In this document: in pieces, positions 48,345-63,868 of the stretch
Layout of the letters: the number at the start of each line of letters is the position of its first letter
Numbering within the stretch: position 1 is the first letter of the stretch
Origin: a virus
Virus record (IMG/VR): IMGVR_UViG_3300045988_183940
Strand: one strand, 5' to 3'
Length of the DNA: 64,000 bases
The notes under the pieces: generated by a model
The model's database searches: none
Told to the model about the DNA's origin: nothing
What the model saw: only the letters and a program-made list of their open reading frames with translations
Position numbers and translations under genes: made by a program

Positions 48345-48418
48345 GTTTGGAGTGCCGTGTCGGACTTGCACCGACATTTCTGGGGTTGCAATCCAGAAGA
48401 TACCTTTTCTCTCAACGG
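48345..48418 (-). tRNA. tRNA-Cys (anticodon GCA) with an unusual T-loop
   Basis: Reverse complement folds as acceptor GTGCCGT/ACGGCAC, anticodon loop TTGCAAC, T-arm GTCGG-TGCAAGT-CCGAC, discriminator U, encoded CCA. The anticodon stem has one A.C mismatch. Confidence 0.55.
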
Positions 48419-48462
48419 CACATAAAAAATTCCTTTTTAAATACGCTATTTATAATTATTTT

Positions 48463-48554
48463 GGCGGACAGGGCGGGACTCGAACCCGCAACCGCTTTTA
48501 CACGGGTCGCTGTTTTCAAGACAGCTCGGCTACCAGTTACCTTTTACCCGTCCA
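48463..48554 (-). tRNA. class II tRNA-Ser (anticodon TGA) with a non-canonical D-arm region
   Basis: Reverse complement: acceptor GGACGGG/CCTGTCC, anticodon arm GCTGT-CTTGAAA-ACAGC, long variable arm, T-arm GCGGG-TTCGAGT-CCCGC, discriminator G, CCA. The D-stem is only found shifted 3 nt (GGT/GCC). Confidence 0.5.
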
Positions 48555-48921: not shown

Positions 48922-49770
48922 ATGAACACAGAAATTGCAAATGTTGTTACAACAGAAAAACTGAATGAACAATTTGAATTTTTTGAAAGCGAAGATTTTG
49001 GAAGACTTGAAATTCTAGTAATCAACGGAAAGATTTATTTTCCAGCAATACAGGCTGCCCGTACGTTAGGATATAAAAATCCAAGAGACGCTATCAAAAA
49101 ACATTGTTTAGAGGACGGGGTCGTGTTTTACGACGGGGTGGTAAAAAGCGGTAAAACAAAGGATGGACAATATTTTGAACAGGTTGAAAAAATAAAATAT
49201 ATAAACGAAGGAAACCTGTACCGACTCATAGTAAAATCAAAGCTGCCATCAGCACATAAATTTGAAAAATGGGTATTTGACGAAGTGATTCCGTCAATAA
49301 GGCACACAGGCTATTATGTAAATCCTCTTCATAAGGATATTAATAACATGCAAAGCTCATTTAACAGAATTTCTGAAATGAACGCAAGAAGCAGACAGGG
49401 AGAGCTTCTATACTCAATAGCAAAAGACATTCAGAACGAGCTTATGAAAAATACTCTCTTAATAAAGGCAGCAAACATCACAACAGGCGAAGAGCTCTTA
49501 CAGCTTCCTGAAGTAAAGGAAAAATCATATACGGCAGAAGAAATTGCAAATGAGCTATATATAAGATACAGTATTGACATTACAAAAATAATGATTGGAA
49601 AAATAGCAAATGCACATAACTTAAAGACAGAAGAAAACGGATATTTTGCATTTGACATGGCAGCTAAAGCTGTAAAGCAGGTTGAATCATTCAGGTACTA
49701 CATAAAAGCAGTTGATATAATATATAACATTATAAGAAATGATGAAAAACTTAGCAAAAAATACTTATAA
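48922..49770 (+). CDS. phage antirepressor-like protein (Bro-N domain)
   Basis: N-terminal FESEDFGRLEILVINGKIYFPAIQAARTLGYKNPRDAIKKH is Bro-N / Ant-like. Upstream region carries AAAATCCCAT repeats. Confidence 0.6.
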   Translation: MNTEIANVVTTEKLNEQFEFFESEDFGRLEILVINGKIYFPAIQAARTLGYKNPRDAIKKHCLEDGVVFYDGVVKSGKTKDGQYFEQVEKIKYINEGNLYRLIVKSKLPSAHKFEKWVFDEVIPSIRHTGYYVNPLHKDINNMQSSFNRISEMNARSRQGELLYSIAKDIQNELMKNTLLIKAANITTGEELLQLPEVKEKSYTAEEIANELYIRYSIDITKIMIGKIANAHNLKTEENGYFAFDMAAKAVKQVESFRYYIKAVDIIYNIIRNDEKLSKKYL

Positions 49771-49777
49771 TAAAAAA

Positions 49778-49800
49778 AGAGCGATTAAATGCTCTTTTTC
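49778..49800. terminator. bidirectional terminator between convergent genes
   Basis: Stem AGAGC/GCTCT flanked by an A-run and a T-run. Confidence 0.55.
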
Positions 49801-49807
49801 TTATTTA

Positions 49808-50065
49808 TTATACATTTCTATAAATTTCAAGAAGTCCACACTTTTTGAGTTTTGCAAACTTGTGCCTACAGCTGTCAGGAGTCCGCTCAAGCATGAGTCC
49901 AATATCCTCATATTTCATTTGCGGTCTTGCGTTCACAAGCTCACGTATTTCACCAACAGTCCATTCAGCTTTGTGCCTTGGAAAAAGCTCCTTGTTATAT
50001 GCAAGCCTTTTTCCTTTATGATAACGCATATAACCGTTATTATCTATATATTTATCGTCATCCAT
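49808..50065 (-). CDS. small Myb/SANT-like DNA-binding protein
   Basis: WTVGEIRELV...YEDIGLMLERTPDSCRHKFAKL resembles a Myb/SANT repeat. Confidence 0.4.
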   Translation of the reverse strand: MDDDKYIDNNGYMRYHKGKRLAYNKELFPRHKAEWTVGEIRELVNARPQMKYEDIGLMLERTPDSCRHKFAKLKKCGLLEIYRNV

Positions 50066-50096
50066 TTTAATGATTTCCTTTCAATACCAATATTAA

Positions 50097-50675
50097 CTAT
50101 TCCACTATAATCTTCTGAAAATTTAAAGTATGGCTATCTTTTATGCAATTAACAGCTATGCAGTTATCAAATATCATATTTACTTTATTCTGCAACTCAG
50201 CCTCGTTTTCAGGATTTCCTTCAAAGCCGTTTAAAAGATATTGATATACTTTTGTTTTAAAGAGGTTCTTTAAATCGGATTCTTTTGATAATATATCAGA
50301 AAAACAGTTTGAAAAGATTATTTGACAACGGTTATCCAAACTGTCCAACACATCTAAAAATTCGCTCTGCCCTCTGTACTCATCAATAAACAGAAAATCA
50401 AATTTATCATTACTTCTTACATATTCTGAAAACTCTAAAAAATTATCGGACACAAAATCATCTGACTGTTTCAATTTTCCTGCAAGCTCCATTTCAGGAT
50501 TAAATGAAAAAAATCCTGCTTTTTTACCGTCTTTTAACTTGTCCCACAAACACATCATAAAACTTGACTTACCTGTTCCAGCACCGCCCATAAATGCAAT
50601 ATTTTTCCCATTATTTATAGCAGATTCAACAGCAGTTTTTACATCCGCTGGAATAATATTTTCATATTCCGTCAT
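50097..50675 (-). CDS. small P-loop NTPase
   Basis: Walker A FMGGAGTGKSS and Walker B FLFIDEY. Confidence 0.6.
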   Translation of the reverse strand: MTEYENIIPADVKTAVESAINNGKNIAFMGGAGTGKSSFMMCLWDKLKDGKKAGFFSFNPEMELAGKLKQSDDFVSDNFLEFSEYVRSNDKFDFLFIDEYRGQSEFLDVLDSLDNRCQIIFSNCFSDILSKESDLKNLFKTKVYQYLLNGFEGNPENEAELQNKVNMIFDNCIAVNCIKDSHTLNFQKIIVE

Positions 50676-50703
50676 TTTACATCACATCCTGTCATAAATT
50701 AAT

Positions 50704-51171
50704 TTATTTCAAATATCTTGTATTTTGCTTAACTTCAACATCCATTTTCCACTCTGATGGACGGTTTCTTGAAAAAGAGATTTTATACATCACATCTGGC
50801 AAAATGTTACCATATATAGCTTTATATTGTTCCTCTGAGAAATTCACATATCTTTTTGGGAACATTTCAATTAATATCCTCTCATCTGTTCTGTCAATGT
50901 TCTTAATTTCACATTCATTAATCTCGAAAAAACGAGAGACATAATTATCAAAAAGACCAATTTCAAATAGAGCCTTTTTATAAAACCTTATCTGCTCTTC
51001 TACACAAGAACCTTCATATTTTGTATAAAACTTAACAAAACTTCCTTTATCAATTTTATTTTTACAGCACACACGTATTATGTTCTTTATATTTTTAATG
51101 TTATATGGCAAAATTTCATAGCTGACATATACGTTTTTATCTTTATTAATTTTAATAATCATATAAAACAA
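50704..51171 (-). CDS. hypothetical protein
   Basis: 155-aa ORF. Confidence 0.5.
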   Translation of the reverse strand: MFYMIIKINKDKNVYVSYEILPYNIKNIKNIIRVCCKNKIDKGSFVKFYTKYEGSCVEEQIRFYKKALFEIGLFDNYVSRFFEINECEIKNIDRTDERILIEMFPKRYVNFSEEQYKAIYGNILPDVMYKISFSRNRPSEWKMDVEVKQNTRYLK

Positions 51172-51193
51172 ATCCTTTCATTGTAAAAAATTT

Positions 51194-51706
51194 TTAAAAT
51201 TGGGACATCTCAACTTTAATTCGCCACAATGTGCTTGAATTTTTTCTTGGAAATATAAATTTTTTCTTTGGGAATATGAGCTTATATTTAACATCAGGAA
51301 AAATATCTCCGCATAAAAGCTCACCTATATTAGCTTTTCCGTCATTAAAATAAACAGTTGGTGTCATATTAATTTCTACATCACCATTTTCAAGCTCATT
51401 AATTTTTTCAATTCTGCATTCACTTGATATTTCTGAAACTTTGCAAAGTTCATCTAACATATCATGGGAATAAAAAGAATCTTGTTCAATACGTTTTTTC
51501 ATTTTTTCTATGGTATCTTTTAAATAAGTATTATCAAACTTTGTATGAAACTCACATCTTGTAACATAGTTAGAAAGTTCATTTTTCCTATACTTTTTTA
51601 TAATCCTTAAAACTTCCTTTTCAGTACGGCTGTCAATTTCATACCTTATAATTGCTTTTTCTTCATTTTCAATACGAATCAGCATAAAACTTTCCCTCAC
51701 TCTCAA
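51194..51706 (-). CDS. hypothetical protein
   Basis: 170-aa ORF. Confidence 0.5.
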   Translation of the reverse strand: MRVRESFMLIRIENEEKAIIRYEIDSRTEKEVLRIIKKYRKNELSNYVTRCEFHTKFDNTYLKDTIEKMKKRIEQDSFYSHDMLDELCKVSEISSECRIEKINELENGDVEINMTPTVYFNDGKANIGELLCGDIFPDVKYKLIFPKKKFIFPRKNSSTLWRIKVEMSQF

Positions 51707-51953
51707 ATACAGATTTACAAAGCTGAGCCTTCATATAGTCGTATGCCTGAGACGCTTCGTCATACGTGTCATAGCAAAGCTCTATCTTTTCATTTTCATA
51801 TCTTGTTACAGACATGTCCTTATCATCAGCTGGAAACAGCTTAATGCAATAAAATCCGTTTTCATCCTTTTTATTTTTAGGACATATTACTTTCTTATAA
51901 TTTTTCATATTAAGAATATATTTTCCGTATATGTCCTTAACGCAAATCCACAT
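51669..51953 (-). CDS. hypothetical protein
   Basis: 94-aa ORF overlapping the downstream gene start. Confidence 0.45.
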   Translation of the reverse strand: MWICVKDIYGKYILNMKNYKKVICPKNKKDENGFYCIKLFPADDKDMSVTRYENEKIELCYDTYDEASQAYDYMKAQLCKSVFESEGKFYADSY

Positions 51954-51973
51954 ATTTAATCACATCCTTTTAA

Positions 51974-53251
51974 TTATTTTACAATATCTTTCAAATAAAT
52001 ATCACTTGTCATAAGTTCAACGCTGTCAAGCTCTTTTCTGAAACTTTCCTTAATATAATCAAAATAATATTCATTATTTACAACAATTCTAAAGCCTGAA
52101 TAAATTACGACAAAACTATCTGGAACAGTACAACCATCTCCAATTATTCCGCATTTTAATGATAATGTCATATCATTTTTTCTCGAAATACAAAGAAGTG
52201 TGCCAAATGTGTCAATGTCAATATGATTTTTATTAATGGTGATGTGTTTTCCATCCTTAGATGAAATTTCCCAGCTGTAGCTTTTTACGCTGTATTCAAC
52301 TTCACATTTCCCGTATTTTCTTACATACTCCGTTAAAAGTTCAATGGATAAATAAAAAACATCCAAATTTTTAATATAGTGTACAACTTTGTTTTTCGTA
52401 ACACTATAACTGTCACTTATCTTAAACCAGCTTCCATTTGGCACAAATTTTGAAAGCTCGGCAAGATAATATCCAAAATAAGGATGAGTTTCCTCAAACT
52501 TCAGACTCATAAACTTCTGAACAAGAACAGGATAAAGAATAAAGGCATTGAAATACTTTTCAAAAAGAACTCCAAATGCTCCGTCTTCCATAAGCCTTAT
52601 TGTGCTTGAAACAAGCCTTGACACTTCCTCATATCTTACATAATAAAGAAATTTAACTATTTCAGGTGTAATCTTGCCTGAAAAGGCTGGAAGATTGTTA
52701 CCGCATACCTGAAACTCAGTAAATCCGTCAAGCACACGGAAAGTAAATCCAACATCAGTAAAATTTTCATTGCGGTTGTCAGTACATCGTCTTAAGAAAA
52801 CGCAGGGATGACTGTATTCTGTAACATTAAAATTCTTAAATTCAAACTTTCCTATAGACTTTATTGACTTAAGAACATCCTCATACGAAAGCTCACGTCT
52901 GCTATCAGTTATATGAAGTTTTGAAAGTCCGCCTTCCTGAAACTTCGGACTCTTAAGATTAAACTTGAAGTCATCAATCACAAGATTTATTTCAGAAACA
53001 TTGCTCCATTTTCCATTATTTTTAATCCTGTTAATAAATGAGGACATAATCTTGATTCCATCATATAAAAGAACATTCCTGTTGGTAACTTCAACAAGCC
53101 CCAAAAATCCAATTTTTACTACACCATCATTGATTTCAATACTGCTATTTAAGATAGCACCGCTATATATTAGAAGATAAAAACCATTTTGGGACACATC
53201 AAAATCAATATCCGCAATGTCTGTGATATAATTAATTTTTACACTTTTCAT
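51974..53251 (-). CDS. hypothetical protein
   Basis: 425-aa ORF. No motif recognised. Confidence 0.55.
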   Translation of the reverse strand: MKSVKINYITDIADIDFDVSQNGFYLLIYSGAILNSSIEINDGVVKIGFLGLVEVTNRNVLLYDGIKIMSSFINRIKNNGKWSNVSEINLVIDDFKFNLKSPKFQEGGLSKLHITDSRRELSYEDVLKSIKSIGKFEFKNFNVTEYSHPCVFLRRCTDNRNENFTDVGFTFRVLDGFTEFQVCGNNLPAFSGKITPEIVKFLYYVRYEEVSRLVSSTIRLMEDGAFGVLFEKYFNAFILYPVLVQKFMSLKFEETHPYFGYYLAELSKFVPNGSWFKISDSYSVTKNKVVHYIKNLDVFYLSIELLTEYVRKYGKCEVEYSVKSYSWEISSKDGKHITINKNHIDIDTFGTLLCISRKNDMTLSLKCGIIGDGCTVPDSFVVIYSGFRIVVNNEYYFDYIKESFRKELDSVELMTSDIYLKDIVK

Positions 53252-53363
53252 AACATCAATCCTTTCTAAACTGTTACTTTTATTATACCATAAAACTTAA
53301 CATTAATCAATAAAAAATACCAAATAAAAAAAGAGATATTTTAAAAATATCCCTTTATTTCTA

Positions 53364-54959
53364 TTATCCCTTATATTCAGCCATAAACCTGCAATGATAT
53401 TTTCGTGCAAGCTCATCGCCTTTTTCAGAAACATTATCTATATACTCAGCTGAATGACTGTTATACGTCAAGTAATGAAAACCATTTACATTTCTCGCAA
53501 GAAGTGAATTTCTGTCAGGGGTTATTACGACAAATGATATATCAGGATGTCCATAATTATCTGGAATCATAAGAGTATTTAATGTGGAAGCTGCATTTCC
53601 AAGTTCAGTTTTAGAAATACTGTCCATTTTTAAATCTTTATTTACATCTTTAGCAAGAATTTCACTCATAGTTTTCTCGCAATTTGGCTTTTCAGAATTT
53701 TCTGAAACGTTATGCTGCCTGCGTAATTCAAGCATTTCAGAAAGAACGTCATACATTTCATCAAAGCTGTAAGGACATGTCTGTGACAAGATATGAACGT
53801 TATCAATAATCTTAAATACTGTATCACGACGCAAAAAGTGCCTGCTGTCAATCCGTATTTCATAATCAGAATGGACATAGTGTGAAAGCTGCTCCATATT
53901 TCTAATATCAAGTCTGCATTTTCCATAAGAATTTAAACATAAAATGCTTAAAATTTCCAAGGCACTCAATTCTCTTCCCTTGAAATCATGTGAATTAAGC
54001 TCTAAAAAATTCTGGAACAAAGTAGAGCCGACTGTGCTTATAAAATGTGAAACTGCTGTAATAAACTCCACATCTCCATAACACTCAGATATGTTATTCT
54101 GTCTATCGAAATTAACCACGTTAAGCCCTTTCTGTATATAAAATCTCTGCACTCTTCCAAAAGCCCACTCAAAATTTACATATTTACCATTATATGCAAA
54201 TGACTTATACGAAGCCCAGAACAGTTGTGGAATTTTTTCAAGCTCATCATTCAGACAAGTACTGCCAATATTCCCTTTTTCGTTTACATGCACTGTCCTT
54301 GATTTATACTCACAGCTTCCAGAAAAAGTAAGTTCTGTATTATTTGAAAAATTAACTGTTACAGGAAGGGAACTGTCTCCAATATTGATATGCTTAGCAA
54401 TCTGTCCAGCAAGAGTAATATCTGACTTTTTATAATTAAGTGCGTCTGAATCACATAAAGCGAACAGTATATCCCGATTATTTTTTATAAGCATGCCTAC
54501 AGGAACACCGCTACTAATGTTATATGAAAACTTTTCCCTGTCAAAAGGTACAAACTGCATTGCAAAATTAAACTTGTCCAAATTAAGCATTGGGTTAGCT
54601 TTTATTACACCTTTTGCAAAATATCGTGACAAAATTTCAGTAACGCTCATAAGAGATGACATCACGCCATCTGGAAAATTGTTTATAAGCCTTGAATCGC
54701 CAATGCTCTTGACATATACATCGGAAAACTTGCTTTTTAAAGTAAGAACCAAGTCATAGCCAGAATTTTCAATGCTGCCTATAAAATCTTCAGTCGAAAA
54801 TCCAATCTTTTCAAGCCTTGAGCTAAGATATATTGCGACATTCCTGCTAAATTCCATAAGCTGTATATCATCAATGGCATATTTTATTCTAAGCTCCTTG
54901 ACAAACTCATCCGAATAGCTGAAAATCATTCCATAATACTCATAGTTTTTTAAATCCAT
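53364..54959 (-). CDS. hypothetical protein
   Basis: 531-aa ORF with its own upstream promoter and a downstream hairpin terminator. Confidence 0.55.
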   Translation of the reverse strand: MDLKNYEYYGMIFSYSDEFVKELRIKYAIDDIQLMEFSRNVAIYLSSRLEKIGFSTEDFIGSIENSGYDLVLTLKSKFSDVYVKSIGDSRLINNFPDGVMSSLMSVTEILSRYFAKGVIKANPMLNLDKFNFAMQFVPFDREKFSYNISSGVPVGMLIKNNRDILFALCDSDALNYKKSDITLAGQIAKHINIGDSSLPVTVNFSNNTELTFSGSCEYKSRTVHVNEKGNIGSTCLNDELEKIPQLFWASYKSFAYNGKYVNFEWAFGRVQRFYIQKGLNVVNFDRQNNISECYGDVEFITAVSHFISTVGSTLFQNFLELNSHDFKGRELSALEILSILCLNSYGKCRLDIRNMEQLSHYVHSDYEIRIDSRHFLRRDTVFKIIDNVHILSQTCPYSFDEMYDVLSEMLELRRQHNVSENSEKPNCEKTMSEILAKDVNKDLKMDSISKTELGNAASTLNTLMIPDNYGHPDISFVVITPDRNSLLARNVNGFHYLTYNSHSAEYIDNVSEKGDELARKYHCRFMAEYKG

Positions 54960-54997
54960 TTCTATTGTCCTCTTTTCTTAAAAATCGTTGGCATTCC

Positions 54998-55026
54998 GCC
55001 GTATAATTATTATATCAAAATACTTA
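54998..55026 (-). promoter_or_regulatory. internal sigma70 promoter (TTGACA-N17-TGATATAAT) for the 531-aa gene
   Basis: Read on the minus strand: TTGACAATTATTAAGTATTTTGATATAAT. A hairpin AAGAGAC/GTCTCTT at about 55045..55070 lies upstream of it. Confidence 0.5.
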
Positions 55027-55113
55027 ATAATTGTCAATATAAAAAGAGACTTAATAAAAAATCTCTTTAAATTAAATAAATTATTTTATTTTTTAATTTT
55101 TAACATTTCCTTT

Positions 55114-56154
55114 TTATTTCAACATAAAGGAGTTATAAAGTTTATAAGAAAGTGAATTTTTATGGTATTCAAGTTCATCTTTTTCTAATTTTTCATATTT
55201 CAATACAAAATCAATAAGAAGATTTTCCAGCACATATTCTTTTAGTAATAACTTATTTTTTGTATGTGTGCAAACCTTATCATGAGACTTGTATTTGAAA
55301 ATACTTTTTTCATCAAAACTTTTAATTAGGAAGCCAAATACAAAGCCAGTTCTAAAATCAAAACTTAAAATATTTGACACATAATTTATACAAACATCCT
55401 TTTTAAAAAACAGCTTCTTAAGTACAATGCCAAATTCAAGAAAATCTCTATCTGAATTATTAAAAATATCAAGAAATTTAAAACCTTGGTTAAAAAACGG
55501 AGCATAATGTATTTCAACTTTGCCCCATATAACTTTAAAATTATATTCAATAGAAGAATTATGAAATAAACTAATAATATTAAATACAGTATTTATATCT
55601 ATACTTTCAGATAATCCAATTTCTACAACAATATTGGAATCCGAAGAAAATTTTACATATCCAGTATTATCTTTAAATAAATAATTACATTTTCCTGATG
55701 TAATTGCTAACGAAATTCCAGTTATAAATTTTTCCAAGTTTCCAACTGGAGAAATATTAAGATGTCTTTCATCAATATAATATTCGTCAAGCACATCAAA
55801 TATAGATAAAAACTGTTTCATAGCAAAGTCCCTGTAAACCTTAACAGTCTTAAGGCTAACAAGCCTGTCAAAAATCATTGCTGTGTTCCATTTCACATAA
55901 AGCCTCATATCGTCAACATTAACATAAGTTATTTCAACAACCCTCAAGTCATACCCATCAATTCCATATTTAACTAATTTCTTGTCAATTTTTTGACAAA
56001 GCTCTTTCGTAAATGAGACCATATAATCATTATCCATAAGAGTTCCAAATATTTCTTGATTATTTGGATGTATTGGCTGATTGAACATATCTTTTTCTAA
56101 ACTAACATGAATATACTTTTGAGGAGCATTTACTTTTAAATATTCATTCCCCAT
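55114..56154 (-). CDS. hypothetical protein
   Basis: 346-aa ORF. Confidence 0.55.
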   Translation of the reverse strand: MGNEYLKVNAPQKYIHVSLEKDMFNQPIHPNNQEIFGTLMDNDYMVSFTKELCQKIDKKLVKYGIDGYDLRVVEITYVNVDDMRLYVKWNTAMIFDRLVSLKTVKVYRDFAMKQFLSIFDVLDEYYIDERHLNISPVGNLEKFITGISLAITSGKCNYLFKDNTGYVKFSSDSNIVVEIGLSESIDINTVFNIISLFHNSSIEYNFKVIWGKVEIHYAPFFNQGFKFLDIFNNSDRDFLEFGIVLKKLFFKKDVCINYVSNILSFDFRTGFVFGFLIKSFDEKSIFKYKSHDKVCTHTKNKLLLKEYVLENLLIDFVLKYEKLEKDELEYHKNSLSYKLYNSFMLK

Positions 56155-56155
56155 T

Positions 56156-57286
56156 TTAATCCACCACCTTTTTAAAACCTATAAATTTTCCAATTCCAAA
56201 TCTATCAAATTCTATTTTACATACTGGATATAAGTATTTATCATAAAACTCAATTTCAACAGGATATAATCCTATAAAAGCGGGAGACCCACTGTCAGCT
56301 TCACTAAGAATTTCCCTATCAGACATAATTTTTAAAGAATCTTCTGAAAAACTATCATCAATAATTTGAAAATCATATATTCCCTTCTTAAGTGTTACCT
56401 TAATATAATTAAATTCCTGCGGGACTCTATAAATATTTTCAAATTCTGAAAAAGGAGTATTATTTAAAATTTCAAAAATACCGTTTTCCACATATTTATT
56501 TTGAGAAACAGAAGTAAAAAAGCCAAAATCATAGTCTGTCTGTTTTTTTAAAAGATTAAAAACTTTCCCCTTGCCAAGCTGATAATCAAAATGAAAAAGA
56601 ATGTCCTTTGATGAAATGCTAGTAATACCTTTTTTAAAAATTTTCACATCTCCATAATGAAAATTCTGATTCTTAAATACAATATAACCATCAACTAAAT
56701 CATAAGCCCTATATTTAAAATTATCATATTCCGAAAGTTCAAGATAGCCGCTATATAAACCATTCCCATTGTCTGTCCAATACATATCTGCAACAGACTT
56801 ATCATCACTGTACGGAATATTTCCGAAAGATTTTAGAAGTTTGAACCTGTCAGGATAATTCCAGTACTGTGGTATATTATTTACACATTCAACCTCGATT
56901 CCAGAATATCTTATTGACAGTATTTCTATTAAAGTTTTTCCAAAAAGACTGGCAGACACAACCTTGTATTTTATAAAAAGCGTATCATCAAACTTGTCAA
57001 AATTAAAGCACGACACATACTGTCTTAGATGTTTATTTCCAAATATTTTATAATTAAATGGATTCACATAAACCATATTTTTACCTGAAACATCAGAAGT
57101 ATTATTGCCACAAATTCTCCAGTCGCAATTAAATTTATCAAAATGAATTTCACATTTATGGTATTTAAAAAATTCAAATATCCTGTCAAAATTAACTGAA
57201 ATTTCATAAATATTTTTATCAATTTTTTCAGTATAACTTTTCAAAGGATTTTTTAATAAATAAAGCATAGTTTCACTTCCTTTCAT
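56156..57286 (-). CDS. hypothetical protein
   Basis: 376-aa ORF abutting its neighbours. Confidence 0.55.
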   Translation of the reverse strand: MKGSETMLYLLKNPLKSYTEKIDKNIYEISVNFDRIFEFFKYHKCEIHFDKFNCDWRICGNNTSDVSGKNMVYVNPFNYKIFGNKHLRQYVSCFNFDKFDDTLFIKYKVVSASLFGKTLIEILSIRYSGIEVECVNNIPQYWNYPDRFKLLKSFGNIPYSDDKSVADMYWTDNGNGLYSGYLELSEYDNFKYRAYDLVDGYIVFKNQNFHYGDVKIFKKGITSISSKDILFHFDYQLGKGKVFNLLKKQTDYDFGFFTSVSQNKYVENGIFEILNNTPFSEFENIYRVPQEFNYIKVTLKKGIYDFQIIDDSFSEDSLKIMSDREILSEADSGSPAFIGLYPVEIEFYDKYLYPVCKIEFDRFGIGKFIGFKKVVD

Positions 57287-57585
57287 TAATTAAATTTATA
57301 TGGAATAAAAATAAAAGTAACAATAAGAATACCAGCTGAAAGAACAGACATTGTTATAATTTCAGCTTTGAACACCGAAAATCCAATAAAAATAGAAAAT
57401 AGCAACATTATTAATGCAGACAATATAAAAGATAATGCAATATAGTTCAAATATCTTGAACATTCAGACCTGTAATCACGTGGCTCTAGCAATATGCTTA
57501 CATTCTTAATCGAAGTTATACAAACTGCAACCACAATAAAATTAATTATAAAAATAATAATTTTTATTAAATTCCCAAAATCCAT
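57286..57585 (-). CDS. small membrane protein
   Basis: 99 aa with 3 TM helices. Confidence 0.5.
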   Translation of the reverse strand: MDFGNLIKIIIFIINFIVVAVCITSIKNVSILLEPRDYRSECSRYLNYIALSFILSALIMLLFSIFIGFSVFKAEIITMSVLSAGILIVTFIFIPYKFN

Positions 57586-57607
57586 ACAAAAAACCTCTTT
57601 TCTAAAA

Positions 57608-58999
57608 TTATCCCTTTCGTATATACCACATTCTAGCTGAATCCTGAATTACAATTCCAAGAGATGTATTAAGAGTTTCAATATCAGAGAATATATTGTC
57701 AATTTCACTTTCAACGCCTCTGTAATACTGTATAACCAATGTATTTTCCTTAAATGTCGCATATCCGTCTTTTCCATAGAAAATAACTCTTATATTACAA
57801 TTTTCAGGAATTTTTGATATACGTTCAATCTGGCTTGCCCATTTACCAAGTATGGATATAATATCATTATCCGAATCATCACAGGAAATTTCAAAAGACC
57901 TTACAAGAAATTTTCCAATAAGATGTTTTGAGTCCGTCAATCTGGCAAGCCTTGTCAAATGCTCAAAAGAAACTCCATCGTCCTTACCTGCATTACGTAA
58001 GACTGATATATCGCTAAAGAAAATAGCGTCCTTGACATCAATTCTTTTATCTTTAGAACTCCAGTCATATTTAATATATTCACACACAGCATTGTAAGGG
58101 CTGTATACAGATTCATTTTTTAAAATTGCATTAAGAATATCCCTTGTAAGAATAAAGTCCTTTAAGACTCCGTATTCTACACAGACCTGCCTAAAAGCGT
58201 CAAACATTTCAAACTTTGTAAAATTCTGATTTTCATAAGCAACATTGAGGCTTCGAGATGTAAACTTAAAGTCAACGTCCCTGAAAAAATCATCATGGCA
58301 TATTTCATCCCATAATCTTCCGCAATCAAGACCCCGCATATCATTAATTTTAAAAACACTTCCATCAAAACTTATAATGCTGTCCCCAAAAATAGCTTCA
58401 ACAGATTCAATTGAATCCCTGCTGAAATTCAGGCTCTTAATAAAACGTGCAAGGCTTCCAATTCTATTGTCCTTTGTATACATTTCAGGGGACACAAGGC
58501 TCACTTTTCCGTTTCCTTTTGTTATAAGAACACCTTTACTTCCAATCTTAACAAACTGTGAATACTCGGACACCTTTCTGCAATGAACTGGGGAAAAATC
58601 CCACACATTCTTAAATCTTCCAAATAAGCTGTCAATAATCACAGTTCCGTCTTCCATGTATGAAGACAGAAGGCTCTTGAAATATGAAACGTAAAAGTCT
58701 TTATAGTCCTTCCCTTTGTTTATAATAGACGAAAGCTTATTGCTGGTGCTGTACACCTCAGCTCCTGTATCAACGCTTACGTCAAGAAAAACACTTTCCA
58801 CGTAGACATCGCATTCACATTTAAGAGTCCAGTCGGAACAGTCAATTCCAGCAGTCCTGATAAAAAGCAGATGTATGCTTTTCCCAATAGCGAATATGAC
58901 CTTCCGTTCTATATCCTCAAGGCTCATATTCTTAAAAAGATAAGGCTTGGAAAGAATTATATCCCTAGCCTTATCTGATATATTTATAACTTTTTCCAT
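57608..58999 (-). CDS. hypothetical protein
   Basis: 463-aa ORF. Confidence 0.55.
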   Translation of the reverse strand: MEKVINISDKARDIILSKPYLFKNMSLEDIERKVIFAIGKSIHLLFIRTAGIDCSDWTLKCECDVYVESVFLDVSVDTGAEVYSTSNKLSSIINKGKDYKDFYVSYFKSLLSSYMEDGTVIIDSLFGRFKNVWDFSPVHCRKVSEYSQFVKIGSKGVLITKGNGKVSLVSPEMYTKDNRIGSLARFIKSLNFSRDSIESVEAIFGDSIISFDGSVFKINDMRGLDCGRLWDEICHDDFFRDVDFKFTSRSLNVAYENQNFTKFEMFDAFRQVCVEYGVLKDFILTRDILNAILKNESVYSPYNAVCEYIKYDWSSKDKRIDVKDAIFFSDISVLRNAGKDDGVSFEHLTRLARLTDSKHLIGKFLVRSFEISCDDSDNDIISILGKWASQIERISKIPENCNIRVIFYGKDGYATFKENTLVIQYYRGVESEIDNIFSDIETLNTSLGIVIQDSARMWYIRKG

Positions 59000-59291
59000 T
59001 TATTATTTCCCTTGCTTTCCCGCCAATATAGTCAATCTTGTTGATGGCGTATTTCTTTATATTTTTACGTATCTTATGCTGTCTCTTGTCAAAAAGTGTT
59101 AAATCCGTATTGGACAGCACTTCAGGAACTAGAAGCCAGCAGTCAGATTTTTTAAGAGTTCCATTGTCGCATTTTTCGTATAGAATCTTCCAGTAATTAA
59201 AGGCATTTTCAAACCTTTTCAGCTTATTAATATTCTTAAAACTTGAAAAAAAATTTGAATATTCTAAAATTTCATTATTCACACCAAACAT
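58971..59291 (-). CDS. hypothetical protein
   Basis: 106-aa ORF. Confidence 0.45.
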   Translation of the reverse strand: MFGVNNEILEYSNFFSSFKNINKLKRFENAFNYWKILYEKCDNGTLKKSDCWLLVPEVLSNTDLTLFDKRQHKIRKNIKKYAINKIDYIGGKAREIINGKSYKYIR

Positions 59292-59296
59292 CCTTT

Positions 59297-59599
59297 CTAT
59301 ATATCAGACAGTATTTCAACACTCTCATCAATACTTTTTACAATAGAAGGCACGTCAACAATTCTTGATATGCCATCTATGCTCCCGTAACGCTTCATAT
59401 AAACTTTTATTCCATGAGCATAGTCATAATACCTGTCGGAAATATACGCTTGCTCATAGTCTTCAAAAGACTCTCCACGAGCTTTCAGCTTTTCATAAAT
59501 TGCATTGTTTACTCCAGTTATAAATTCCCCCAAAGATATTTCAGGAAAATATCCAGCCATATATGACTGAAAGCTGTTACTTAATCTTACATCAAGCAC
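59297..59599 (-). CDS. hypothetical protein
   Basis: 100-aa ORF. Confidence 0.45.
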   Translation of the reverse strand: MLDVRLSNSFQSYMAGYFPEISLGEFITGVNNAIYEKLKARGESFEDYEQAYISDRYYDYAHGIKVYMKRYGSIDGISRIVDVPSIVKSIDESVEILSDI

Positions 59600-59622
59600 A
59601 ACATCACTCCCTTTTCATTATT

Positions 59623-60876
59623 TTAATATATCATTTTATTACGAATTTTTATCTTGCCATCCTTAACATCGTAATATTTTTTATCCGTTTCAACAATAAT
59701 ATACCATCCTGTAACAGCAGAAATAAATCTGAACTCTTCCAAGTTAATCTCGTTTATTTCAGGTATAACGACTGTTATTGATGAGCCTTTTTTTAAAATA
59801 CCATAATTGTAACTGCATATAAGCCTAACTTCATAAGTTAGTCCAAGCTCTGTACGCCCCATTCTTTCCATATTGGACAATGTTTTCATAATATGCTCCA
59901 CGTCAATTCTTGAAGACTTTATTATCTTTTTGTCATAGTCCCCAAGAAACCAGTTGTCCTTGTTTCTGTCGGATTCATAAATGTGTTTTTTCTGAAACTC
60001 ATCATCCCCATAGTAAAACTCAGTTGTATCAAGTCCCACAAAAACAGAACCATTTTCAGGAATATATTTAAGATTGTCATATTTTACAGTATTGTTATAA
60101 TACCATAACGAGTTTGGCAGGCATGCCATCTGTTCAGAAAGCACAAACGAAGATTCGTTAAACTTGCTGTAGTCAACCTTTTCCCCACCTAGTATTACAT
60201 ACCAGCTCATAAGGTCAAGATAAAGCCTTTTATTGTCATTTATCCACTCAGGGCTAAGCACAAGTTCAAAATACTTTTCAATTACACTTGTCATTGATAT
60301 AAGCTCTTTCATTTCACAAAGGAACGACAGAACCTTGTCCTGCATATCAAAGAACATTGAAAACTCCTTTAAAACCCCATCCCTTATTACGAGTTTCTGA
60401 GTCCCCTTATAGACTTCAAAATTAAAGGACTCTTTTGACGAAGCTCCAAATTTGCAGTTTGTTGAATTAAAGCTAAAACTCCTAAAAAATGTATCACTGT
60501 CTTCTTTATAGAACGACATTACAAATCTTGCAATAAATTCAATATTGTCATCAAAACGCTCTTCCCTGCTTAAAATTGAAATATCCCCATTATCATATTT
60601 AGCAGTAATATTGTTATCTGATAAGGAAATAAAACTTGAAACATCTTTCATTTCTTCAAACAGCAAAGCTATAAATCTATAAGGCGTTGAATTTTCAATA
60701 TCATCTATATACATTGACGGCTTAAATTCAACATTATATCGCTTAAAGCTCTTTGAAACTTCACACATCGTACCAAAGGAAAAATCAAATTGTTTTTCTG
60801 AAAAATCATCCATTGACATAAGCTCTTCCTTAAAAGCCTTGATGTCATTAAACGGATTTATTTTAATTACATCCAT
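59623..60876 (-). CDS. hypothetical protein
   Basis: 417-aa ORF. Confidence 0.55.
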   Translation of the reverse strand: MDVIKINPFNDIKAFKEELMSMDDFSEKQFDFSFGTMCEVSKSFKRYNVEFKPSMYIDDIENSTPYRFIALLFEEMKDVSSFISLSDNNITAKYDNGDISILSREERFDDNIEFIARFVMSFYKEDSDTFFRSFSFNSTNCKFGASSKESFNFEVYKGTQKLVIRDGVLKEFSMFFDMQDKVLSFLCEMKELISMTSVIEKYFELVLSPEWINDNKRLYLDLMSWYVILGGEKVDYSKFNESSFVLSEQMACLPNSLWYYNNTVKYDNLKYIPENGSVFVGLDTTEFYYGDDEFQKKHIYESDRNKDNWFLGDYDKKIIKSSRIDVEHIMKTLSNMERMGRTELGLTYEVRLICSYNYGILKKGSSITVVIPEINEINLEEFRFISAVTGWYIIVETDKKYYDVKDGKIKIRNKMIY

Positions 60877-60877
60877 T

Positions 60878-61258
60878 TTATTCCACCTCTTTTAATACAT
60901 CACGAATCTTCTTAATAGCCTTTGGTTCAAGATTATAGATTTTTTCAGAAAACAATACTGTAAGTTCTTTCTGCTCTGCATTTAAAGATTTCATGTCAAT
61001 TACAATCTCGGAAGTACTTTTACTTATCGCCTTTATAAGTGCTATGCTCTGAGCTTGGTTCAGCTTATATATTTCTGCAATTTTTTGGACAAACCCTTTA
61101 GGGATAGTTCTTTCCCCACGTTCAATTAAAGAAAGATAGGACGCTGAATATCCAATCTTTTCAGACATTTTTATCAATGACTGCCCGTGGTCTATCCTTA
61201 ATTTTGACAAGAATTTTCTAAGCTCTGTATTACTAATATCGGTGAACATAAATATCAC
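60878..61258 (-). CDS. XRE-type HTH transcriptional regulator
   Basis: HTH SLIKMSEKIGYSASYLSLIERGER. Preceded, on the minus strand, by a promoter with an imperfect copy of the palindromic operator. Confidence 0.65.
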   Translation of the reverse strand: MIFMFTDISNTELRKFLSKLRIDHGQSLIKMSEKIGYSASYLSLIERGERTIPKGFVQKIAEIYKLNQAQSIALIKAISKSTSEIVIDMKSLNAEQKELTVLFSEKIYNLEPKAIKKIRDVLKEVE

Positions 61259-61364
61259 ATCCTTTTTCTGTTTATTATTCTTTATCTTTATTATACATCA
61301 TATTTACAAATTTGTCAATAGAAAAATATAAAATGTAAATAAAAAAAAGAGAAAAATCTCTTTT

Positions 61365-61994
61365 CTATAAACTATTTTTTATTTTACATACATCCTTTAT
61401 GCCAGTAATATTGTTTACTCCATACATCACTTCATCTGCAAAATGTTTAATACTAAAAACGTTATTTTTGTCTGCAACATTAATGATTAATTCATAATAT
61501 TTTTTGTCATATTCCAAGGACTCCATAACAGCATAAAGCAAGTCTAAAATATAAACCGTGCTTTCAAATGAGCCTTTGATAACTTTAAGACAATAAAAAT
61601 TATCATTTTTTACAGAATATCCCTTGTATTCAAGTCTTTTAACATTATCCTTTATTCTTTTAATAACATCATCAGAAAGCATTGAGAATACGAACTTTGT
61701 AAGATAGCTTACGAATATAAAATCGTTATTATTAAGATTTTCAGTGTTCCCAATAACGGAAACTTTTCCACTAAAGTCAGATACAATACAGCAATCAGAA
61801 CTGTAAGAATAAATTATACGTTTACCAACAAACATGACGCTTGAATCAAGAAATGTAACATCCTTAATTTTAGAAGCACATTCTCTTGCTTTCTCAATGC
61901 TCCCAGTTTCATATAAGTTTACAATATCCTGACGTTTTAATAAATTCTCAATCTCCAATTTTATTACATCAAGTCTTTTTAAATCATTATCCAT
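61365..61994 (-). CDS. hypothetical protein
   Basis: Start moved to the Met at 61994 (MDNDLKRL...) with RBS GGAGAG. The annotated 62066 start would lie upstream of the promoter at 62017..62054. Confidence 0.5.
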   Translation of the reverse strand: MDNDLKRLDVIKLEIENLLKRQDIVNLYETGSIEKARECASKIKDVTFLDSSVMFVGKRIIYSYSSDCCIVSDFSGKVSVIGNTENLNNNDFIFVSYLTKFVFSMLSDDVIKRIKDNVKRLEYKGYSVKNDNFYCLKVIKGSFESTVYILDLLYAVMESLEYDKKYYELIINVADKNNVFSIKHFADEVMYGVNNITGIKDVCKIKNSL

Positions 61995-62016
61995 TGTAAC
62001 TCTCCTTGCGTTTAAT

Positions 62017-62054
62017 TTATACATTATTATAACATTTATTGACAATTTTGTCAA
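62017..62054 (-). promoter_or_regulatory. palindromic operator-promoter cassette (minus strand)
   Basis: Minus-strand reading TTGACAAAATTGTCAA-TAAA-TGTTATAAT, identical to the cassette at 40515..40543. Confidence 0.55.
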
Positions 62055-62096
62055 TAAAATAATCAATAAAAAAGAGGTATAAAAACCTCTTTTATA

Positions 62097-63233
62097 TTAT
62101 ATTTTATTAACTCTTTTCCCATTAAAATACATTTCAACGGTGTTACCGCAAACAAGTGTAACAGGAAGATTATTATTTTTAGAAAGTGCTACAACAAGCT
62201 CCCTGTTGTGTTCTGTAAGCTCAAAAGCGTCCTCAAATTCCACAACAGTTCCGCTCCATTCTGTCGTAACGTCAATTCTGCCATCATTATCACGTACTGA
62301 ATATTTACCTTGACAAGTGTTATAAAGTTTAACGGAACGCTGCATAAGCGTATACAGGTCAGCGTTTTCGACATACTCTATAATTGCGTCACCTGTTATA
62401 TGAAAATTTGTCTGAGCTACAGGATATATCAAGAAGTCAGGTATAAATTTTCTGATTTCATTAAAGAACTTAAGATTTTCCTTGTCCTTTAGCTTAATTT
62501 CAGAATCATCACACAGCATAAAATACAATACTGCGACAAGATGTGCATTGCTACCAGTTTCAATGTCAGTATCAAGTGTCTTTCCTTTTAGCTTTCCAAT
62601 AGACTTAAGATAACGCTCAATTGCAGGCTTTAAGTTTACGCCGTAGTATGTGTTAAGGGTATCAACAGCCTTAACTAAATTATCATCAAGTATACATTTT
62701 TCTACATTTCCATCATCAACTGTGAAAATTCCAAGATTGCTTACCATTTTAAGATTTATTGAAGATTCCACAAACTGATTATTCTCAACATCAACTGAAA
62801 AGTCAAAAACTCGTGAAGAATAGTCAACATATTTATAAAATCTCAAGTGAAACATATTCAATATTGAAATATGATAAAGAACGCTGTCAATACTCTTATC
62901 CTTAAAGTCAATATCAAGCCCTTTATTATGCTCGTTATAACGCACAGTAAAGTCTTTCAGCTTAAAAGTCAGCCTGTCAACATCAGTATTAAAATGAAAT
63001 ATTGAAATAAAATTATAAATAAATTTAACAATATTTTCATTAGTTGTCAAATCAGGAACAGTAAACTTAAGCCCTTTCGTACTTTTTGAAAAGCACATTT
63101 TCCCGTTTACGTCCCCAGCTCTTAAATCTGATTCAAACTCTTCATCAAATCCAATAATCTCAAGCCCCTTAACATATTCTATTACAGTCTCATTGTTTCC
63201 AAATTCAAGTTCCATATAATTAATATCTTTCAT
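62097..63233 (-). CDS. hypothetical protein
   Basis: 378-aa ORF. A terminator AGAGGT/ACCTCT lies just downstream at 62070..62092. Confidence 0.55.
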   Translation of the reverse strand: MKDINYMELEFGNNETVIEYVKGLEIIGFDEEFESDLRAGDVNGKMCFSKSTKGLKFTVPDLTTNENIVKFIYNFISIFHFNTDVDRLTFKLKDFTVRYNEHNKGLDIDFKDKSIDSVLYHISILNMFHLRFYKYVDYSSRVFDFSVDVENNQFVESSINLKMVSNLGIFTVDDGNVEKCILDDNLVKAVDTLNTYYGVNLKPAIERYLKSIGKLKGKTLDTDIETGSNAHLVAVLYFMLCDDSEIKLKDKENLKFFNEIRKFIPDFLIYPVAQTNFHITGDAIIEYVENADLYTLMQRSVKLYNTCQGKYSVRDNDGRIDVTTEWSGTVVEFEDAFELTEHNRELVVALSKNNNLPVTLVCGNTVEMYFNGKRVNKI

Positions 63234-63256
63234 AATTTCTCATTTCCTTTCTTATC

Positions 63257-63868
63257 CTAAAAATCTAAAATTTTGTTATAAAAATATTTTATCCAGTATT
63301 CATTAGCTTTTGCTTCTACGGGGTTGCCAGCTTCAGAAGACGGCTTAAAAGCATATCCGTTCTGTTTAACCGATTCAATAAAGTCCATTGGATATATTAT
63401 AAACACGTTACCATTACTTCCTTTTGCTATAATTTGCCAATAACTTTCATTTTCAACCTCAAAGTCACAATCTTTCATAAAGTCAACATATCCAGCAATA
63501 TCCTTAAGTTCTGTTATATACATTGTGGCAGTTTCTGTAACATTTTTACAGAACTTAATCTCATTCACTAAATCTTCAATTTCCCAATCTGAAAATTCAG
63601 ATAACTTTTTATATTTGACAGTCCCAGAAAAATCCTTGTCCACATTTATATAATAATTTTCAAACTCAAAGCGTGTACAGTCATCAAGCACAAAAATATT
63701 TCTGATTCTGTCACAAATATCTGCAATTTCACTTGGATTGTCAAAACTGTACATATTTACTCCAACCATCCCTTGTGAAAAACCACGGACTTCATTCTCA
63801 AGAAGTCCCTGCAAAAAATTAATTCTGTTTTCAGCAAAATTATCACTTACTAATTTTTCGTTATTCAT
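63257..63868 (-). CDS. hypothetical protein
   Basis: 203-aa ORF with the RBS GGGAGAAATTGAA-ATG. Confidence 0.55.
   Translation of the reverse strand: MNNEKLVSDNFAENRINFLQGLLENEVRGFSQGMVGVNMYSFDNPSEIADICDRIRNIFVLDDCTRFEFENYYINVDKDFSGTVKYKKLSEFSDWEIEDLVNEIKFCKNVTETATMYITELKDIAGYVDFMKDCDFEVENESYWQIIAKGSNGNVFIIYPMDFIESVKQNGYAFKPSSEAGNPVEAKANEYWIKYFYNKILDF

Follow-up and report, generated by a model that had tools for sequence, protein, structure and literature searches.

It is only recently that giant extrachromosomal elements were recognised in the human oral microbiome, and the greater part of their genes is blank. Among them, Inocles are giant elements that resemble plasmids, 245-395 kb in size, assigned to Streptococcus, with a GC content of about 32% (delta taxon: 24%) (PMC12340149). 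Compared by description only, and thus as a lead, the element treated here is alike: it comes from human oral metagenomes, is giant, plasmid-like and low in GC (about 32%), and carries tRNAs, VirB4, a DinG-type helicase and Pol III components. In both, the majority of genes are without a database match. It differs from Inocles in its size of ~205 kb, in host hints pointing to Fusobacteriota, and in diderm-style type IV secretion parts, namely TrbB/VirB11, OmpA-domain proteins and, in a sister lineage, VirB9.

The window, a stretch of 64,000 nucleotides from this element (IMG/VR record IMGVR_UViG_3300045988_183940), contains a block of 18 genes in 49808-63868, all on the minus strand and found at the listed ORF coordinates (Table 1). 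The reading favoured here, with about an even chance of being right, is an accessory, repressor-controlled multi-operon region, carried by a giant conjugative-type element and holding a split variant of a traffic ATPase.

Genetic context

Contigs of 200.6-207.5 kb recur for the element, and gene content was read for 84 kb of its length. TrbL/VirB6 and T2SSE/TrbB are encoded in the window, while VirB4, OmpA-domain proteins and SLT are encoded just outside it or elsewhere on the element. The location of the block inside a mobile element, which the initial annotation had stated, is supported. The term "conjugative" is derived from the VirB4, VirB6 and VirB11 genes alone, because no relaxase, coupling protein (VirD4) or oriT was seen in the 84 kb read. 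The element also carries RtcB, RusA, a Bro-N antirepressor and DnaN, and the nearest matches of VirB4 and of Bro-N are in Fusobacteriota. Only ~20% of the element genes have a Pfam match anywhere; the darkness of the block is typical of the whole element. The anti-defence genes ssb, psiB and ardA and other known families of this kind were found neither in the block nor within 10 kb on either side.

The ~205-kb size, the tRNAs and the RtcB, RusA, Bro-N and DnaN genes would also suit a jumbo phage or phage-plasmid, with the block as its highly diverged module of virion or early genes. Dense consensus promoters of an "early" type agree with this, and many jumbo-phage structural proteins evade sequence profiles. 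Such an origin is nevertheless highly improbable, though the 120 kb beyond the part read may yet be of phage or phage-plasmid nature. No structural or packaging PHROG matches the block or the same-strand genes upstream, g12 and g13 are without relatives in IMG/VR viral contigs, and GenBank phages gave no megablast match to the block. VirB4, VirB6 and VirB11 are present, and a BFVD fold search with g17 returned generic matches only. No sequence test (Pfam, PHROGs) points to ordinary phage structural proteins, the outcome that would have spoken against a novel region. The reported lack of terminase, portal, capsid, integrase, nuclease and methylase signatures was upheld by Pfam, PHROGs, PADLOC and NCBIfam.

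Genes of the block

All 18 genes are genuine and under purifying selection, with pairwise dN/dS values of 0.02-0.5, mostly 0.1-0.3, against four close relatives. Seven proteins span 346-531 aa (378, 417, 463, 376, 346, 531 and 425 aa), one fewer than first counted, and the other 11 are smaller. The gene set of the proposed 14-kb unit was confirmed, but its right-hand boundary is arbitrary, because a further gene directly precedes g01 with just an RBS between them and runs off the window. Upstream of the block, dnaN lies two small genes away in divergent orientation, and uncharacterised same-strand genes resume beyond it.

Table 1. Genes and regulatory features of the block, in order of transcription (window positions)
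Feature	Position	Strand	Description
g01	63257..63868	-	203 aa, acidic, soluble; paralogue of g03; shares a transcript with genes lying upstream of the window
g02	62097..63233	-	378 aa, soluble; matches no known family
Terminator	62070..62093	-	hairpin and T-run, between g02 and g03
Promoter of g03	62026..62054	-	sigma-70, 12/12 TTGACA-17-TATAAT, extended -10; palindrome TTGACAAAATTGTCAA over -35
g03	61365..61994	-	~209 aa from ATG at 61994 (mechanical listing 61365-62066); paralogue of g01
Terminator	about 61340-61367	-	AT-rich hairpin just upstream of the g04-g11 promoter
Promoter of g04-g11	61290..61318	-	sigma-70, 12/12 TTGACA-17-TATAAT; one-mismatch operator TTGACAAATTTGTAAA
g04	60878..61258	-	XRE-family HTH regulator; lineage 2 homologue 42% identical
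g05	59623..60876	-	417 aa; start overlaps g04 stop; 28% identity in lineage 2
g06	59297..59599	-	100 aa; lineage 2 copy 39% identical, adjoins HTH gene
g07	58971..59291	-	106 aa, basic; missing from the called genes of variant L016
g08	57608..58999	-	463 aa; broken into a pair of ORFs in variant L009
g09	57286..57585	-	99 aa; three hydrophobic segments
g10	56156..57286	-	376 aa; missing in variants L011 and L012
g11	55114..56154	-	346 aa; missing in variants L009, L011 and L012
Terminator	about 55040-55068	-	hairpin after g11, precedes the g12 promoter
Promoter of g12	55009..55037	-	sigma-70, 12/12 TTGACA-17-TATAAT
g12	53364..54959	-	531 aa; putative partner of g17
Promoter of g13-g18	53282..53310	-	10/12 match, extended -10; a terminator hairpin lies between it and g12
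g13	51974..53251	-	425 aa; lineage-specific; largely deleted in variant L005
g14	51669..51953	-	94 aa
g15	51194..51706	-	170 aa; tandem paralogue of g16
g16	50704..51171	-	155 aa; tandem paralogue of g15
g17	50097..50675	-	192 aa; predicted stand-alone VirB11/TrbB/PilT-like ATPase domain
g18	49808..50065	-	85 aa, basic; phrog_11013; last gene of the block
Bidirectional hairpin	49774-49799		after g18, followed by the convergent Bro-N gene

The description of the block as uniformly dark holds: 14 of the 18 proteins have no match in Pfam, PHROGs, PADLOC, NCBIfam or PDB sequences, the PADLOC scan covering the ten largest proteins and g17. For 13 of the 18 neither family nor fold was obtained; among the large proteins only g12 was modelled (pLDDT 41). 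The XRE regulator g04 was verified by HTH_3 (31.0 bits, curated cutoff 23) and HTH_31 (30.7 bits, cutoff 27). A "Myb-like" assignment of g18 was not sustained, the Pfam match being sub-threshold (E 0.0047), and its solid match is to a PHROG family of unknown function. Roles given here to block proteins are in every case predictions. A 28-nt segment of g14 recurs in inverted orientation within g12.

A hydrophobic-segment check indicated cytoplasmic or soluble products throughout, except for g09, the sole membrane protein, whose three predicted membrane segments were recovered. A membrane apparatus is unlikely, because g09 alone has hydrophobic segments of membrane-spanning length. This weakens the proposal of a novel structural or secretion apparatus, which retains the VirB11-like g17 and a VirB9-like neighbour in the sister lineage in its favour.

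Transcription units and operator

The block comprises at least five transcription units. Every unit has an AT-rich hairpin terminator of its own, and behind it a consensus sigma-70 promoter. The palindrome TTGACAANNTTGTCAA, exact or with one mismatch, covers the -35 element of the promoters at 62054-62026 and 61318-61290. Operator-bearing promoters had been placed near 61270..61307 and 62017..62054, and internal promoters near 53290..53330 and 54998..55026. All four were recovered: the first two match the consensus at 12/12 positions and carry the palindrome over the -35, and the internal ones lie at 53310-53282 (10/12) and 55037-55009 (12/12). Translation of g03 probably begins at the ATG at 61994, since its promoter falls inside the mechanically called TTG ORF.

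Perfect promoters number 16 in the window against 0.06 expected, and operator copies eight against 0.1 expected. Just two of these eight copies lie inside the block, and further copies occur upstream in L015. Both the promoter class and the operator are thus element-wide and not specific to the block. The very strong operator-bearing promoters may be held shut by HTH repressors encoded on the element, g04 being one candidate. They would then fire when the repressor is lacking, for example on entering a new cell.

Gene turnover among related elements

The block is syntenic in about a dozen close variants, from which individual genes have been lost or broken (g10 and g11, g07, g08, g12/g13). On one contig of full element size (205,962 bp), g12 is truncated and joined to the tail of g13. 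Lineage 2 has only g04, g05, g06, g12 and g17, reordered and mixed with other genes. Lineage 3 retains a single block gene, g12, fused to a g17-like domain (P0008). Of the seven large proteins, the next lineage thus shares only g05 and g12. Gene content turns over by duplication (g01/g03 and the tandem pair g15/g16), insertion, deletion and frameshift. Two small modules alone persist across lineages. One consists of the XRE repressor-like g04, translationally coupled to g05, and g06; the other is g12 with g17.

The initial annotation regarded the 18 genes as a strong candidate for one undescribed system, acting as a unit in defence, in anti-defence or as a novel apparatus. Co-orientation, tight packing, uniform darkness, synteny across the close variants and the inclusion of a regulator and an ATPase agree with it. 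A single system is decidedly unlikely, however, given the division into at least five transcription units and the deletion or breakage of single genes on full-size contigs (the g12/g13 fusion-deletion, g10 and g11 in L011/L012, g08 in L009). The next lineage shares just 5/18 genes and the third just one, and similar genes carry on outside the block. A defence function found no backing in PADLOC, which gave no system-model match for the ten largest proteins and g17 and was empty but for generic P-loop noise. What stands of the original claim is a real and dark set of genes in a mobile element, behind operator-bearing promoters; the single coherent 18-gene system does not.

Large and small genes alternate in the block, and g05-g06 are conserved together. 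This pattern could be read as arrays of type-IV-secreted effectors with immunity or chaperone partners (g05/g06, g08/g09, g13/g14), for which g12-g17 would be the dedicated recruiting ATPase. The type IV secretion context fits, and effector repertoires typically show such turnover and duplication. This explanation is very unlikely, since Pfam found no effector domain, whether toxin, XVIPCD or other, the dN/dS values indicate ordinary purifying and not diversifying selection, and the pairing is a pattern of size only. Under the favoured reading as an accessory multi-operon region, the lineage-specific soluble proteins would be dispensable cargo that serves establishment or interaction with the host, and not parts of one machine. 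A large co-oriented block of uncharacterised genes need not be a single "system".

A putative split traffic ATPase

The one decipherable piece of the block is g17. The Walker A/B NTPase previously noted at this locus was borne out by profile searches and by a fold model, from which g17 appears to be a free-standing, highly diverged member of the VirB11/TrbB/PilT traffic-ATPase superfamily that comprises the catalytic domain alone. Its Walker A reads GGAGTGKS, in agreement with GxxGxGK[ST] (GKTGSGKS in the lineage 2 homologue, GKTGSGKE in P0008), and its Walker B IDEYRG (YDEFR in lineage 2). In an hhalign alignment with the TrbB of the element itself, Walker A, Asp box and the GE-x-R Walker B all line up; FLFIDEYRG of g17 pairs with MMIGEIRTG, and FSFNPEMEL with SIEDTPELML. 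Relative to the atypical Walker B pattern hhhhGE(I/V)R(D/G) of the family and its Asp box between Walker A and B, the G-to-D and ED-to-N substitutions make g17 a divergent version. The His box is replaced (GH by RC and T-x-H by S-N-C in the alignment to TrbB, with SNCF at the second site).

The AF2 model of g17 (pLDDT 81) has DotB as its top Foldseek match. No Pfam T2SSE match was obtained, and TIGR02788 scored 15 bits against a cutoff of 250. PADLOC returned just weak P-loop matches (Nhi, GajB, mad8). The protein consists of the catalytic domain only, without an N-terminal domain.

Relatives of g12 are scarce, with only three representative clusters among 1.84 billion proteins. In lineage 2 (L001/L003) g12 is 39% identical and adjoins g17. 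The pair lies there directly upstream of a VirB9/CagX-like gene (Pfam E 2.7e-25) whose product has an N-terminal membrane anchor; no VirB9-like gene occurs near g17 in the lineage of the window. In P0008 of lineage 3, the N-terminal part corresponds to g12 (99.4% probability) and the C-terminal part to g17 (93.7%). This fused form may be inactive, because its ATPase part seems to be without Walker B. No resemblance links g12 to the N-terminal region of the TrbB of the element, or to any known N-terminal domain. Together, g12 and g17 may work as a two-piece motor ATPase tied to the secretion or transfer machinery of the element.

Alternatively, the pair might serve replication or maintenance, with g12 as an initiator or DNA-handling protein and g17 as a DnaC/IstB-like AAA+ loader. 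Genes of DNA metabolism are close by in each of the three lineages (dnaN upstream of the block, HU upstream in L001, NAD-ligase and dUTPase next to P0008), and g17 has PHROG matches to clamp-loader and DnaC-like families. A replication module is unlikely all the same. In the fold comparison, traffic ATPases beat IstB/DnaC by ~4 Z units, with 169 against 138 residues aligned. The match of g17 to TrbB runs motif by motif, including the GE-x-R-type Walker B, and the neighbour in lineage 2 is VirB9-like. The truncation of g12 and its fusion to the g13 tail on a full-size contig argue against an essential role in replication.

A wider interpretation of the two-piece ATPase is possible, if unlikely. 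The two proteins would represent a new, sometimes fused class of traffic ATPase, confined to a family of giant oral elements and combining a VirB11-like catalytic domain with a novel ~500-aa module for binding substrate or machine. The surrounding soluble orphans would be its clients, as secreted effectors or establishment factors, and the region would add a new cargo-delivery module to a type IV secretion system.

Comparison with known systems

The blank genes of this element are real and under selection. They form many small operons whose promoters are unusually perfect and in some cases have a common operator, and they turn over fast between lineages. Among them, the g12/g17 pair offers a concrete handle, as a relative of secretion ATPases that appears split, linked by a gene fusion and a VirB9-like neighbour. 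The VirB11/TrbB/DotB/PilT/GspE ATPases are matched by g17 in Walker A, in the Asp-box region and in the acidic-E-x-R Walker B. VirB11-type ATPases carry the N-terminal domain on the same polypeptide, whereas g12 is a separate gene here, four genes from g17.

For the regulation, the nearest parallels are the IncP KorA/KorB-type regulons and leading-region genes. The Kor proteins and operators have no sequence relation to this element, for which repression and zygotic induction are proposed by inference. The likeness is one of organisation. Many scattered operons are driven by very strong promoters, as in the IncP plasmids, and one palindromic operator overlaps promoters, here common to a subset of them. 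As with leading-region establishment genes, the genes form co-oriented blocks whose soluble products are small to medium in size and of unknown function.

Gene content and annotation of the block

The window holds 18 minus-strand ORFs at 49808-63868, numbered from g01 at the right end of the block to g18 at the left, as located in the initial annotation. Seven of the products, not eight, fall within 346-531 aa, and eleven are smaller, where about ten had been counted. Compared with four close relatives (L005, L009, L011 and L012), every block ORF has a dN/dS of 0.02-0.5, mostly 0.1-0.3. All 18 are therefore genuine protein-coding genes under purifying selection. Inside a single element pair, dS differs from gene to gene, which points to a recombination mosaic.

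The block proved as empty of annotation as had been described. Pfam and PHROGs yielded matches for only three genes: an HTH_3 match over threshold (Pfam) in the XRE regulator gene g04, weak P-loop matches (Pfam/PHROGs) in g17, a 192-aa ATPase domain, and phrog_11013, a family without known function, in g18. The last gene had been called Myb-like, but its 'Myb' match lies under threshold. PADLOC, proposed as a check for defence systems, and NCBIfam returned nothing beyond P-loop noise on g17. PDB sequence searches with g02, g05, g08, g10, g11, g12, g13 and g17 gave noise only; a 'Scone' match of g08 and a designed-protein match of g12 were low-complexity artefacts. Hydrophobic segments of membrane-spanning length occur in g09 only, and the remaining block proteins are soluble, most of them acidic or neutral. 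Comparison of all proteins with each other by hhalign and HMM searches, with shuffled decoys, supports paralogy only for g15/g16 (hhalign 96.5%) and g01/g03 (hhalign 93% via a bridging sequence). A single paralogous family of all large block proteins is not supported. An initial BLAST match between g02 and g13 failed to hold up.

Conservation and gene turnover

Among close relatives, gene order is kept and single genes come and go. Nucleotide identity of the block is 91-94%, against 88-96% in the flanks, which rules out a hyper-divergent block within its lineage. Both g10 and g11 are missing from L011 and L012. L009 lacks g11 and carries g08 as two ORFs, and in L016 no g07 has been called. A natural deletion in L005 (10001-11291 of a 205,962-bp contig) creates an in-frame fusion of g12 residues 1-358 and g13 residues 359-425. 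One full-length variant has a disrupted gene for the 531-aa protein g12, which is therefore not essential for maintenance.

A 28-nt inverted repeat, 96% complementary, flanks g13, with copies in g14 (51795-51822) and g12 (53770-53797). The g12 copy is an in-frame insertion of nine codons, reading VHILSQTCPYS in place of the DN of other variants. The insertion occurs in the window, L009, L010 and L011 and is absent, for instance, from L012, P0002-P0004 and P0007. The repeat resembles a duplication made by inverted template switching and could mediate inversion of g13.

Two further lineages have been recognized. In the second (L001-L004, a 122-kb contig), the homologous region lies at the same place and ends at a convergent Bro-N gene (57% identical), followed by a 121-aa gene (67% identical). 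Only five of the 18 block genes are found there: g12 (39% identity), g17 (32%), g04 (42%), g06 (39%) and g05 (28%). They are arranged as g12-g17-[VirB9/CagX-like]-[PcfJ-like]-[50 aa]-g04-g06-[225 aa]-g05. Of the block genes, only a g12-like one occurs in the third lineage (L013/L014, HMP samples), and a convergent ORF6N/Bro-type gene follows it. Across the three lineages, a Bro-N antirepressor-like gene is conserved at this block boundary (57% and 48% identity). VirB9/CagX-like and PcfJ-like genes in or near the sister regions (L001 12124-14234; L013 20009-22046) are absent from the window's block. L013 has two PcfJ-like genes, with Fic, NAD-dependent DNA ligase and dUTPase genes nearby, none of which is in the window's block.

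The block had been proposed as a single undescribed system. A uniformly dark block does exist; its genes do not co-occur as one unit, being reduced to five and reordered in the second lineage, lost singly among close relatives and distributed over at least five predicted transcription units. The proposal is thus only partly supported, and one integrated novel system is quite unlikely; 13 of the block proteins have no fold assignment. A plastic accessory region that retains a small conserved kernel would explain this pattern; an 18-part machine would not.

Promoters and putative operators

Judged from promoter and hairpin sequences, the block comprises at least five transcription units (Table). 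An AT-rich hairpin with a T-run stands ahead of the promoter in units 2 to 5, and the start of g05 overlaps the stop of g04. Perfect TTGACA-17-TATAAT promoters number sixteen in the window, against 0.06 expected by chance; almost every one has an extended -10, and they are equally dense in all three lineages (L001, L013 and the window's own). The palindrome TTGACAANNTTGTCAA, exact or with one mismatch, covers the -35 element of 8 of the 16 (0.1 expected) and was seen in the window's lineage only. The operator-bearing promoters noted earlier are therefore present, but not specific to the block: two precede g03 and g04, and the other six precede RtcB and unrelated genes. This distribution suggests an element-wide repressor regulon acting through TTGACAANNTTGTCAA as putative operator. 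Since g04 lies behind one such promoter, it is a plausible candidate for the repressor.

Coordinates of block and element features (window positions unless a locus is named)
Feature	Position	Strand	Detail
g01	63257-63868	minus	
g18	49808-50065	minus	
Predicted unit 1	hairpin 62070-62093		upstream genes-g01-g02; stops at hairpin
Predicted unit 2	promoter 62054-62026		g03; perfect TTGACA-17-TATAAT
Predicted unit 3	promoter 61318-61290		g04 to g11; perfect
Predicted unit 4	promoter 55037-55009		g12; perfect
Predicted unit 5	promoter 53310-53282		g13 to g18; 10/12 match, extended -10
Perfect promoters	11755, 19464(-), 27940, 28063, 29043, 31314, 33703, 37968(-), 40516, 44017, 45241, 48567(-), 48669, 55009(-), 61290(-), 62026(-)		
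TTGACAANNTTGTCAA copies	11755, 19477, 33703, 40516, 44017, 45241, 61303, 62039		
TTGACAANNTTGTCAA copies, further upstream	L015 70, 4808, 7337		
TrbL/VirB6	486-3245		919 aa
TrbB/VirB11-type ATPase	4299-5753		484 aa, long N-terminal extension
VirB4	L007 5410-8151		913 aa; just outside window
Ro/TROVE-like	31786-33168		
RtcB	33759-34907		
tRNA genes	31485-31604, 31613-31689, 48351-48421, 48462-48553		
Bro-N antirepressor-like	48922-49770	plus	convergent with block

The g12/g17 pair

The predicted model of g17 is confident (pLDDT 81, pTM 0.83). Profile alignment of g17 to the ATPase domain of TrbB from the same element covers 109 columns (E 2.8e-5) and puts Walker A, the Asp-box region (NPEMEL versus EDTPEL) and the family-typical Walker B (IDEYRG versus IGEIRTG) in register. 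This fold and alignment place g17 in the VirB11/TrbB/PilT superfamily, as a diverged catalytic domain that stands alone. Foldseek results for the model are concordant, if less sharp. The histidines downstream of Walker B in TrbB are replaced in g17, which is not a member by the curated thresholds for VirB11-type families. A viral fold library returned generic P-loop matches only. A replication module with g17 as a DnaC-like loader is unlikely, given the register with TrbB.

In the third cluster of the g12 family, P0008 (681 aa), the match to g12 extends over residues 7-508 (99.4% probability) and a match to g17 covers the final ~170 residues (93.7% probability, E 1.9e-7), where Walker A is intact and Walker B seemingly absent. 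The two genes are thus fused in the third lineage and adjacent in the second; in the window they stand four genes apart, separated by g13-g16, with the g15/g16 duplication among these, and by a new promoter. In the second lineage, a gene for a 194-aa protein begins 14 nt after the pair; this protein has an N-terminal membrane anchor and a clear VirB9/CagX domain (E 2.7e-25). Rosetta-stone and neighbourhood evidence suggests a joint role for g12 and g17 and links both to type IV secretion. No likeness of g12 to any known N-terminal domain was found, and its AF2 model, from a 7-sequence alignment, reached a pLDDT of 41, too low for use in a fold search. An exhaustive HMM search of 1.84 billion proteins for the g12 family retrieved just 3 representative clusters.

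The host element

The exact window proteins are also encoded on a 206,506-bp human oral metagenome contig (ERZ964589 k127_61922), of which the window corresponds to about 19.1-83.1 kb, reversed. Near-identical elements of 200.6-207.5 kb have been assembled many times, indicating an element size of about 205 kb. In the 84 kb examined, only about 20% of called genes have Pfam matches. The block itself extends past g01, which is abutted by a further gene with an RBS alone between them. Beyond a divergent dnaN follow eight more same-strand genes (108-473 aa), none with a Pfam match on record and one with a PHROG match, to a family without known function. Within the element, the block does not stand out.

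VirB4, TrbL/VirB6 and TrbB/VirB11 form a type IV secretion cluster, and two OmpA-domain proteins are encoded upstream of it, just outside the window. The 84 kb examined showed neither a relaxase nor VirD4. Arrays of type IV secretion effectors and immunity proteins are a very unlikely content of the block. Other annotated window genes encode an SLT transglycosylase, RusA, a DinG/Rad3-type helicase, RtcB, a Ro-like protein, a flotillin and tRNAs. The SPFH/flotillin (517 aa, 8743-10296), directly downstream of the secretion genes, is unusual mobile-element cargo. Several tRNA genes adjoin RtcB and the Ro/TROVE-like protein, suggesting an RNA-repair module. One Rfam tRNA match is 120 nt long although its model has only 71 positions, which suggests an insertion or intron; another tRNA has an odd anticodon (ARAGORN).

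The best plasmid matches of VirB4 are from Ilyobacter and Fusobacterium (about 30% identity), and a VirB4 scan of GTDB genomes gave no match. The Bro-N gene has its best local match in Fusobacterium phage phiKSUM (55% identity), a possible host clue; both matches are weak hints. Block DNA found no megablast match among GenBank phages or PLSDB plasmids. Related-locus scans with g13 in IMG/VR viral contigs, and with the g12 alignment in GTDB species genomes and IMG/VR, retrieved no relative. The block is very unlikely to be a diverged phage module.

Interpretation and comparison with known elements

Observed are a multi-operon accessory region, consensus promoters, a subset of which shares a putative operator, soluble products, rapid gene turnover and a split relative of traffic ATPases. 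A repressor-controlled accessory region with a g12/g17 motor and dispensable cargo has about an even chance of being the correct composite reading. Element-encoded HTH repressors would keep the strong promoters off, and these would fire where repressor is lacking, for example upon entry into a new host. The g12 and g17 products would then serve as a motor for the element's transfer or secretion apparatus, and the lineage-specific proteins as dispensable cargo for establishment or host interaction. The region counts as genuine dark matter that offers one testable handle, the g12/g17 pair, and so far no evidence of a new mechanism. Novelty lies less in the block than in the element family, which is giant, oral, composed mostly of orphan genes and dense in perfect promoters, and also in the putative split VirB11-like ATPase.

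The closest published parallel, by description only, is the Inocle family of giant human-oral elements (PMC12340149). Inocles are reported at 245-395 kb, compared with about 205 kb here, and their Streptococcus host differs. Habitat, GC content, tRNAs, VirB4, DinG and a majority of unknown genes are, by the same description, common to both.
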